This document shows, piece after piece, positions 20,708 through 22,882 of a DNA stretch of 31,806 bases. The translations under genes were made by a program, and so were the position numbers. The notes below the pieces were generated by a model. That model saw only the letters and a program-made list of their open reading frames with translations, made no database searches and was not told where the DNA came from. The DNA is taken from positions 1-31,806 of IMG/VR virus record IMGVR_UViG_3300032225_001850; one strand, 5' to 3'. This DNA comes from a virus (Duplodnaviria; Caudoviricetes). The first letter of the stretch is position 1, and each line of letters starts with the position of its first letter.

Positions 20708-21301
20708 TTACGCCACACCTTCAGTGCCTTGTGCTTGTCTAGCCACAGCATCCTGGGCGATACGCAGGAATTCTGCGGCCACTCGTGTGCTGTCGGTCTG
20801 GATCATTTCCCCGGAGGTCATGACCATATAGACCATGTGTCCTGCGTGATTACCCGCACTCCAGCTGGAATCTACTGCTATGATCCTGAAGCGTTCGCCC
20901 TGCTGGGTAGTCTCTACTTCTGCTGGACGGCCTGTGACGCGAACACACTGGGCACCCTTGTTGATTTCTCCAGCCATTTCTGCCAGCTGGGCAGGTGTAA
21001 ACCTAAAAGTGGCATAGTAGCCTGACTTCTGCTGGGGAGCCAGATGATCGCGGCCTTCTTGGTCCATGATGTCCACAGTGGCATTAACTTCTACATAGGT
21101 CTGGCCTGCCATGTCGTAGCCTCTACAGCCCATGGACTTGCTGATTTCTGCCACCAGTTCGGTGACTGAAAACCAGTAATGGTTCAGACCTTCGGCACTG
21201 TTAAGGCCAGCATCTGGCTTGTAGCCCTTTAAGTCACTGGCTACTACCTTGGCTTTCTTGGATTTCTTTACCACTCTACCATTTTCTACGCGATAAGTCA
21301 T
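20708..21301 (-). CDS. Early hypothetical protein (197 aa)
   Basis: Own promoter and GAAAGGT ribosome-binding site. Confidence 0.85.
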   Translation of the reverse strand: MTYRVENGRVVKKSKKAKVVASDLKGYKPDAGLNSAEGLNHYWFSVTELVAEISKSMGCRGYDMAGQTYVEVNATVDIMDQEGRDHLAPQQKSGYYATFRFTPAQLAEMAGEINKGAQCVRVTGRPAEVETTQQGERFRIIAVDSSWSAGNHAGHMVYMVMTSGEMIQTDSTRVAAEFLRIAQDAVARQAQGTEGVA

Positions 21302-21997: not shown

Positions 21998-22009
21998 CTA
22001 AATACTTGC

Positions 22010-22178
22010 GTAGGGGCCTTGGCTCGTAGGTATCCTAAACAGTGGATACTGAACTGCGTGGTCATAACGCTATCCTTTTTTTCCATAGCCCCTACACCCG
22101 CCTTTCTGTTTAAGTCTCCAACTTTCAATAAAACGGCAAACCAAACCCCCTAGTTATTAAGCCATCTAGGGGGTTTTT
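22010..22178 (+). ncRNA. Candidate small structured RNA
   Basis: Begins 5 nt after TAAATA (21999-22004). GTAGGGGC/GCCCCTAC encloses two hairpins and the segment ends in a terminator. No ORF. Confidence 0.5.
22143..22178 (+). terminator. Rho-independent terminator
   Basis: AAACCCCCTAG-12 nt-CTAGGGGGTTTTT. Confidence 0.8.
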
Positions 22179-22213
22179 CTTTAGGTTATTTTGTTTGCGT
22201 GGTAAATACTTGT

Positions 22214-22624
22214 GGAGATGTATCATACAGAAAGGTTGGCACGCCGAATACTAATTGTGCTGGAGAATCTTGTGGAGCATACTGAGGCCTCGCACAGCAT
22301 CCAATTCGCCGGTATCTGTCCGGTGGCTTTTACGCACTACTGAAGAGTAGCCTGAAAGAATAGTCCTACTAGTTGAGAACCCTGACGAATGGATGACGAT
22401 TTGCGTGATCGGAATGGTTAGAAGATTACTATTGCTATGAGAACAAACAGCCACTGAGATGTTCTCTTAAAAGTCACGGCAGGTCTGGGTAAGCGTTGAG
22501 CCCAAGCAATACTTCGAATACTTGATAAACACCTGCTGGTAACGACAGAGCAACTCACTCGTCAAAGATATGCCACTACTTCGGATAGTGGCACTCTGAT
22601 CAATCTATCTGTCAAATGATCTCT
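22214..22624 (+). ncRNA. Candidate large structured RNA (~410 nt), family not recognised
   Basis: TAAATA at 22203-22208. The 5' and 3' ends pair (22227-22238 with 22601-22612), and there are several internal helices and a C-UUCG-G loop. No credible ORF. Confidence 0.6.
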
Positions 22625-22705
22625 AAGTAATAAAAAGAACGCATTGAGCTACGAAGTTGCTCAATAGATCTCGTTAGAGATCTCTAAATGTGCTAATATA
22701 ATGCT

Positions 22706-22882
22706 ATGAGATACAACGAATATGAATTAACCAAGATGCCTTATGGCCGGTATAAGGGTTATTTCCTTAAGGATTTACCAGAGGATTACCTACGATGGTG
22801 TGTGAGTAATTTCACTGACACAGGTATGGCCACCATGTTTGCTGTAGAACTACAACGCAGACATCCTGAATTGAGAAGATAA
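22706..22882 (+). CDS. DUF3820-like small protein (exonuclease X C-terminal-like, 58 aa)
   Basis: Not in the ORF track. Contains the MPYGRYKG..LKDLPEDYLRW signature. Confidence 0.8.
   Translation: MRYNEYELTKMPYGRYKGYFLKDLPEDYLRWCVSNFTDTGMATMFAVELQRRHPELRR

Follow-up and report, generated by a model that had tools for sequence, protein, structure and literature searches.

The question raised by this locus is what is encoded by a ~410-nt element that lies in a gap without genes, close to the divergence of leftward and rightward genes in a small tailed phage, and what its product may do. Large ornate RNAs of bacteria and phages are rare and nearly all of them are without a function, and the ~410-nt RNA predicted here comes with a mechanism that is open to direct test. 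The window, by which we mean the whole stretch of DNA that was analysed (31,806 nt), is the entire 31.8-kb record of a small tailed aquatic phage, 89% complete, whose gene content includes an SU10-type capsid and portal, terminase, GroES and Dps; relatives of its terminase are abundant among viral contigs. No replication genes were recognised among the ORFs of the window, many of which have no family, and a search with a 260-aa ORF returned no match. A divergent 197-aa ORF (20708-21301) was set aside, its sole match being OB-fold-like in the Atlas and of low confidence (pLDDT 0.40); it was absent from all fetched loci.

Folded as a single sequence, the window RNA is no better than its shuffles (z = -0.69; 20/100 shuffles equally good), and the evidence was therefore drawn from homologues. 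After removal of duplicates, 127 distinct homologues were collected, consisting of 93 members of subtype A and 34 of subtype B, which have a common 5' domain and different 3' domains; about a dozen of the type-A entries are fragments or carry another 5' domain. Motif scans yielded 45 true loci out of 52, the other 7 being dropped as chance matches, and a scan with the 3' motif gave 65 loci; metagenome loci were true in 54/54 cases and bacterial-genome loci in 5/6, five copies were found in loci fetched via neighbouring proteins, and one locus (L138) was dropped before the counts. In 401 genomes of one alphaproteobacterial family, BLAST found 7 matches, one of which was the query's own. No match came from an exact 19-base viral scan, and no real match either from BLAST of the window RNA with type-A, type-B and RF01718-type homologues against cultured-phage records or from a plasmid search for the element; the DNA contigs of four sequencing runs held only partial homologues.

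Covariation was assessed against a tree-based null made in imitation of R-scape, which is not R-scape itself. Members that were truncated or had an alternative 5' domain were left out (16 ids in the first set, 14 in the second), and near-identical or gappy rows were removed (58 to 55 and 82 to 74, respectively). At E<=0.05, covariation was found for 22 column pairs of the 74 full-length type-A sequences, 21 being Watson-Crick pairs and one an identity pair; the pairs 22436/22505 and 22476-78/22494-96 exceed every null value. An independent alignment of 42 sequences of the 5' domain had 93% of cells paired, compared with 23-45% with slid partners, and both-side changes in 23/26 pairs. G-U pairs outnumber A-C pairs by 140:16 on the plus strand, which is therefore taken as the folded strand, as the preliminary description had proposed. 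Its view of the element as a highly structured, pseudoknotted non-coding RNA is thus borne out at the level of prediction, with a fold that differs in its details, and the homologues argue that a conserved family of plus-strand, multiply pseudoknotted non-coding RNAs is real. The predicted features are collected in Table 1.

Table 1. Predicted features of the locus in window coordinates; paired cells were counted over 74 type-A sequences.
Feature	Position	Strand	Basis or remark
TAAATA, predicted T4-late-type promoter element	22203..22208	+	Upstream enrichment in homologues; seen before window ORFs
Predicted ~410-nt structured RNA, subtype A	22213..22624	+	Homologues and covariation; both ends inferred, transcript may continue
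Pseudoknot, 5' leader 22227-22231 with loop of hairpin P4 22315-22319	22227..22319	+	
5' domain, probable remote Polynucleobacter-1 relative	22232..22419	+	P2-P5 and pseudoknot
P2	22236-42/22257-63	+	504/518 cells paired
P3	22262-64/22300-02	+	216/222 cells paired
P4	22306-12/22320-26	+	346/425 cells paired; covarying local hairpin
P5	22330-36/22402-08	+	500/518 cells paired
5' domain pseudoknot	22350-52/22416-18	+	221/222 cells paired
3' domain, type A	22430..22593	+	Covariation and per-helix counts
3' domain pseudoknot	22430-36/22505-11	+	258/518 cells paired; outer pairs poorly aligned
Hairpin GAGAAC/GTTCTC	22439-44/22461-66	+	434/442 cells paired; strongest covariation
Loop pairing	22450-56/22586-92	+	342/368 cells paired; competes with terminal hairpin 22571-22593
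Pseudoknot, 3' domain, type A	22476-78/22494-96	+	
Helix GCAGGT/ACCTGC	22479-84/22531-36	+	410/441 cells paired
Direct repeat R1	22551..22566	+	CTC 22558-60, core GTCAAA 22561-66; identity covariation with R2
Direct repeat R2	22601..22616	+	TCT 22608-10, core GTCAAA 22611-16; 50 nt past R1
A-rich tract and two abutting hairpins (22642-22664, 22665-22682) without U-tract	22625..22682	+	

Every pairing listed in the preliminary description is present in the window where it had been placed, including the helix between the two ends, which pairs at 11/12 positions. Conservation divides these pairings. The hairpin GAGAAC/GTTCTC and the helix GCAGGT/ACCTGC are kept throughout the type-A sequences, and the strands of the terminal hairpin can pair in 50/50 parsed members by a permissive test, its column count (231/549 cells) being lowered by misalignment. 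The end-to-end helix is not conserved (39/328 and 160/404 cells paired); without an alignment, true partners were equal to mismatched ones at -5.47 kcal/mol (n = 56), compared with -13.5 for the window alone, and this helix is confined to close relatives of the window. The helix TGACGA/TCGTCA falls inside an insertion missing from most members, and the proposed pseudoknot AGCCACTG/CGGTGGCT is paired in 213/442 cells and is not conserved, CGGTGG forming the 3' strand of the covarying hairpin P4 instead. Four other pseudoknots are conserved. The one between the 5' leader and the P4 loop ranks weakly in the covariation (E = 44 for column pair 22228/22315), and its true partner beats mismatched ones in 41/56 members, with means of -5.5 and -3.6 kcal/mol. 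Because strand 22586-92 pairs both with the loop at 22450-56 and within the terminal hairpin, two alternative folds or an intermolecular contact are possible.

The identity of the RNA was approached through known families. ARAGORN gave no match, in agreement with the earlier opinion that it is neither tRNA nor tmRNA, and Rfam scans were blank over the element, whether the whole window was scanned (E<=1) or the element by itself (E<=10); motifs of RNase P, tmRNA, introns and small ribozymes were likewise without an Rfam or ARAGORN match, and the Rfam models of group I, group II and small ribozymes had none at E<=10. Likenesses to group I and group II introns, lariat-capping and HEARO RNAs, RNase P and c-di-AMP riboswitches were considered and discarded, since the Rfam scans were blank and the element's covarying helices are different. 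No description of the full-length RNA was found in the papers searched; the supplementary candidates of PMC10690425, up to 151 nt long, may include fragments of it. The element had been called undescribed, which holds as far as Rfam matches are concerned and needs qualifying because the orphan Polynucleobacter-1 motif (RF01718) is probably a distant relation of its 5' domain, to judge from hairpin order and weak profile matches.

Polynucleobacter-1 was reported with 16 representatives and tabulated as possibly cis-regulatory (Weinberg et al., 2010; PMC2864571); beyond that paper, full-text searches for its name or accession returned unrelated genome papers only. Two homologues have weak RF01718 matches exactly on the 5' domain (24.3 and 16 bits), and the best A/B homologue, L452, reaches 25.8 bits (E 9e-4), the gathering threshold being 37 bits. 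The window has no match to RF01718 at E<=10 and scores -0.8 bits with a profile built from RF01718-type members. With this profile, 11/127 A/B domains score above 5 bits and reversed controls 0/127, whereas the reverse search gave 0/49; L140 and L452 bridge the groups, L140 scoring with both profiles (19.7 and 12.7 bits). Being below every threshold, the window RNA is probably a relative and not a member of RF01718. In both, the 5' domain runs through three hairpins into a multistem, in identical order and with similar linker motifs. True RF01718 members extend ~250 nt past the 141-nt Rfam model into an unmodelled region of parallel 3' architecture that has R1/R2 repeats and the tail, as in the ~410-nt element, and one of them (L449) also has the type-B 3' motif. 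They differ in setting: the RF01718 members fetched from phages sit behind a GIY-YIG gene without an upstream TAAATA (0/45), whereas the A/B RNAs are free-standing, and the two kinds co-occur in one genome at separate places. The predicted element and its A/B homologues probably form new free-standing subtypes of a Polynucleobacter-1 superfamily. Even if the RNA does not act as a primer, as proposed below, the 141-nt Rfam orphan would then correspond to the first third of RNAs of ~410 nt that are rich in pseudoknots and fall into at least three subtypes, and this family is a good target for structure determination.

The carriers comprise phages of 32-37 kb, giant phages of 214-354 kb and small integrase islands. 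The giant-phage records have one match per genome in 5/5 cases. Subtypes A and B have no fixed partner gene, no gene family being found near more than 18/127 loci, and the genes downstream have no relationship to one another and frequently face the other way. No polymerase, primase, helicase, initiator or sigma gene was recognised in 73 ORFs of two complete carrier phages, among whose many ORFs without an assigned family a divergent initiator could hide, and no replication gene was recognised in four bacterial islands that carry the RNA. Among ten relatives fetched via the terminase, all incomplete, the RNA was found in 1/10; three genomes that span the syntenic slot (G576, 93% complete, G577 and G580) have neither RNA nor tail nor a recognisable replication gene. 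Different large non-coding elements occupy the same slot or its vicinity in L476 (1676-2277, +) and L473 (5415-5809, -); they end in the same kind of tail hairpins and have no match in Rfam or to the profiles of types A, B and C (RF01718-type).

Several single loci deserve mention. The type-A 3' domain is joined to differing 5' domains in L155, L164, L172, L173, L180 and L185 and also in L192, L195, L197, L199 and L206, which suggests modular domain swapping. L301, in which an intact 5' domain is followed by unrelated coding sequence in place of the 3' domain, is apparently a broken copy. In four small alphaproteobacterial islands (L322, L324, L326, L327), each RNA copy has (GA)TAAATA upstream, and each island combines some, though not necessarily all, of the following parts: the RNA, an integrase, a short tyrosine recombinase, DUF6626 and DUF6641. 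These islands are candidate satellites of T4-like phages. The 354-kb phage G004 (L216, L222, L223, L328, L214) carries a permuted tmRNA, ~48 tRNAs, GOLLD, an RF01718-type RNA and a type-A RNA. Rfam Atu_At1 gave 49.2 and 41.1 bits, below its 60-bit threshold, in two small-phage relatives (L135:235-339 and L126:269-378).

Three features around the folded core bear on function. The first is the TAAATA at the 5' end, a putative promoter element of T4 late type, which is also found directly 5' of several ORF starts in the window. The word is not enriched over the window as a whole (20 found, 19.7 expected). Within 150 nt upstream of the RNA, it occurs at 33/90 type-A loci (background 9.7) and 20/33 type-B loci (background 4.7). 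Many other genes of the window phage have TAAATA upstream as well, and no sigma factor gene was recognised in this phage. In many homologues (e.g., L300 and L206), AGGC(A/T) words recur in the 5' leader, ahead of the conserved core, at about threefold over background (75 vs 25.7 in type A, 35 vs 10 in type B); the leader of the window's own RNA has no AGGC repeat.

The second feature is the pair of direct repeats R1 and R2, whose spacing across members is 47-71 nt and whose cores, of which there are about 19 different ones, change together between lineages. A repeat of at least 5 nt is present in 61/93 type-A, 4/34 type-B and 49/49 RF01718-type members and in 1/267 chimeric controls, and by eye several bacterial type-B copies have a looser form of it. 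Searches of the RNA and of its 600-nt flanks found no Watson-Crick partner of R1/R2 beyond chance level. Since the cores differ between the two family members of one genome in 3/3 giant phages (G002, G003, G004), a genome-wide protein dictating the repeat sequence was rejected, and a partner in cis, for instance the template strand, is indicated instead. R1 and R2 differ systematically (CTC vs TCT), which leaves ~6-9 nt of contiguous pairing.

The third feature is the downstream tail, a candidate single-strand loading signal for a primosome or helicase. It is not a terminator, a U-tract being found behind the element in 7/96 cases, and A+T at the downstream tract is 0.71 compared with 0.58. 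The strict tail motif, which was defined with a ColE1-type site in mind, occurs on the RNA-sense and antisense strands in 16/61 and 0/61 type-A loci and in 42/49 and 3/49 RF01718-type loci, with a background of 0.2 or less; the copy in the window is a variant and does not pass it. In ColE1, a string that fits this pattern lies on the RNA II strand, ~135 nt beyond the origin, given the positions assumed for the origin and the primosome site. Directly behind the tail, a 58-aa ORF (22706-22882, +) resembles the C-terminal part of DNA polymerase III epsilon/ExoX-type proteins, and its family is near the RNA in 14/127 loci, mostly just 3' of it.

Among the three guesses made earlier, an undescribed large RNA, a ribozyme and a replication primer, no ribozyme core was recognised and the primer fits the anatomy best. 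We favour, tentatively and at somewhat less than an even chance, the reading that the ~410-nt RNA is a replication pre-primer of an R-loop origin resembling those of ColE1 RNA II and T4. The RNA would be transcribed from the TAAATA promoter with the late sigma factor of a co-infecting T4-like phage and would fold during its synthesis; R1 in the RNA would pair with the template strand at R2 and nucleate a hybrid, so that, towards its 3' end, the RNA re-pairs with its template as a persistent R-loop. The 3' end would come from RNase H or from polymerase release, host or helper-phage enzymes would likely start DNA synthesis at this single site, and the hairpins on the displaced strand would load a primosome or helicase. 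Dependence on a T4-like helper is suggested by the small carriers, which have TAAATA-type promoters and no recognised sigma or replication genes.

The parallel with ColE1 and with T4 oriF/oriG speaks for this reading. ColE1 replication starts from a non-coding RNA with a promoter ~550 bp upstream that forms a persistent hybrid and needs no initiator protein (PMC5043065), an rG tract of this RNA must contact a template dC tract (PMC4412123), and primer extension exposes a primosome assembly signal (PMC3167613); T4 oriF and oriG consist of a promoter and an A/T-rich downstream unwinding element (PMC4412123). Like ColE1, the element has a long folded non-coding RNA with a repeated tract towards its 3' end, no recognised initiator gene, no terminator and, downstream on the RNA-sense strand, a motif of similar kind. 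It differs from ColE1 in having no sequence similarity (profiles A, B and C had no match on NC_001371), repeats that vary between lineages where the ColE1 sequence has two visible G-tracts, no sigma-70-type promoter for an antisense RNA I inside it, and a habitat of phages and islands. With T4 oriF/oriG it shares a promoter followed by an A/T-rich stretch and the setting of T4-like phage systems. Unlike the element, T4 R-loop origins use middle promoters, and we know of no conserved folded RNA at oriF or oriG.

The primer reading is further favoured by the identity covariation of R1 and R2 without a Watson-Crick partner, by the near confinement of the tail motif to the RNA-sense strand, by the rarity of U-tracts, by the lack of recognised replication genes in carriers, window and islands, and by the single match in each giant-phage record. 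In 4/5 small phages, these four sharing their orientation by descent, the strand-specific component of the skew measured at four-fold sites favours G on the RNA-sense strand, which counts for the primer as well. Skew evidence is nevertheless mixed and also weighs against it: the component is opposite in G578, where the RNA is co-directional with the structural genes, and near zero or slightly opposite in two giant phages, and in G003 and G004 the skew does not switch at the element. Further points against a primer are the relatives in which the slot is covered but both the RNA and a recognisable replication gene are missing, the RNA's presence in 1/10 relatives, the short pairing left by the CTC/TCT mismatch and the scarcity of repeats in type B, the failure of the window's tail under a motif definition coloured by ColE1, and the odd timing of a late-type promoter for an origin. 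Giant phages moreover carry two family members, and their RF01718-type member goes together with a nuclease gene.

If the RNA is a primer, priming by structured RNA would be a property of phages and satellites as well as of ColE1 plasmids, and there would be an explanation for small phages that lack replication genes. The wider proposal, which we advance with slightly more reserve than the primer itself, is a superfamily of RNA-only replication origins in giant T4-like phages, small phages lacking replication genes and integrase islands, in which repeats re-grip the template, a helper's late sigma switches satellites on and no initiator protein is involved; in that case the orphan Polynucleobacter-1 motif would gain a function.

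An alternative, which we consider unlikely although it is the strongest of the others, is a free-standing ornate RNA like GOLLD (RF02032) or ROOL (RF03087), that is, a released late transcript that oligomerises through its loops or is catalytic and has no role at the DNA. Both are large ornate phage RNAs, which form RNA-only cages through kissing loops (PMC12286853), and the element resembles them in size, in its four to five pseudoknots and A-rich linkers, in a loop with two alternative partners, and in its variable neighbours and patchy presence among relatives. GOLLD and ROOL are often neighbours of tRNA arrays. Against such a role for the element, no tRNA was found in 44/44 loci scanned, the tRNA arrays of G003 and G004 are ~45 and 145 kb from it, a terminator is lacking (U-tract in 7/96), and the identity-covarying repeats and strand-specific tail are left unexplained; the catalytic version also faces the blank search for group I, group II and small-ribozyme models at E<=10. 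GOLLD itself scores 193-199 bits at a separate tRNA-linked locus in G003, G004 and G005 and not at the element, its 3' domain model has no match in the window, and ROOL has no match in five genomes, in a search in which no positive control scored either; full Rfam scans were blank too.

It is improbable that a nuclease or recombinase uses the RNA as its partner or as a target cassette (cf. HEARO and omega RNAs), with R1/R2 as cut or exchange sites and subtypes A and B borrowing the enzyme in trans. RF01718-type RNAs do lie directly behind a SegE-like GIY-YIG gene in 43/49 loci, with a gp46-like gene nearby in 37, and a small tyrosine recombinase adjoins 5/9 bacterial copies with scanned neighbours, but the type-A/B loci have no such constant neighbour, repeat cores differ between two elements of one genome, and no variable guide segment was found, the variable 5' leader pairing internally. 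Least probable, by a little, is a regulatory RNA, which would act in cis as the leader of the gene behind it or serve as a decoy of a host protein via the leader AGGC repeats: the tabulation of Polynucleobacter-1 as possibly cis-regulatory (PMC2864571), the switch-like alternatives of loop and terminal hairpin and the upstream AGGC(A/T) enrichment are set against unrelated, often oppositely oriented downstream genes, the lack of a terminator or expression platform and a window leader without the repeat.

The neighbourhood of the element holds a second TAAATA-led non-coding unit (21999-22182, +), possibly a separate ~170-nt RNA, with an outer stem at ~22010-22092 that encloses inner hairpins and an end formed by a terminator-like hairpin (22143-22176) and a U-tract. 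The unit is kept in L002, L081 and L082 with compensatory-looking changes, and it is the predicted insulator of the large RNA against read-through. Farther to the left, two near-consensus sigma-70 promoters (11/12) point leftward on the minus strand at 21674-21646 and 21366-21338.
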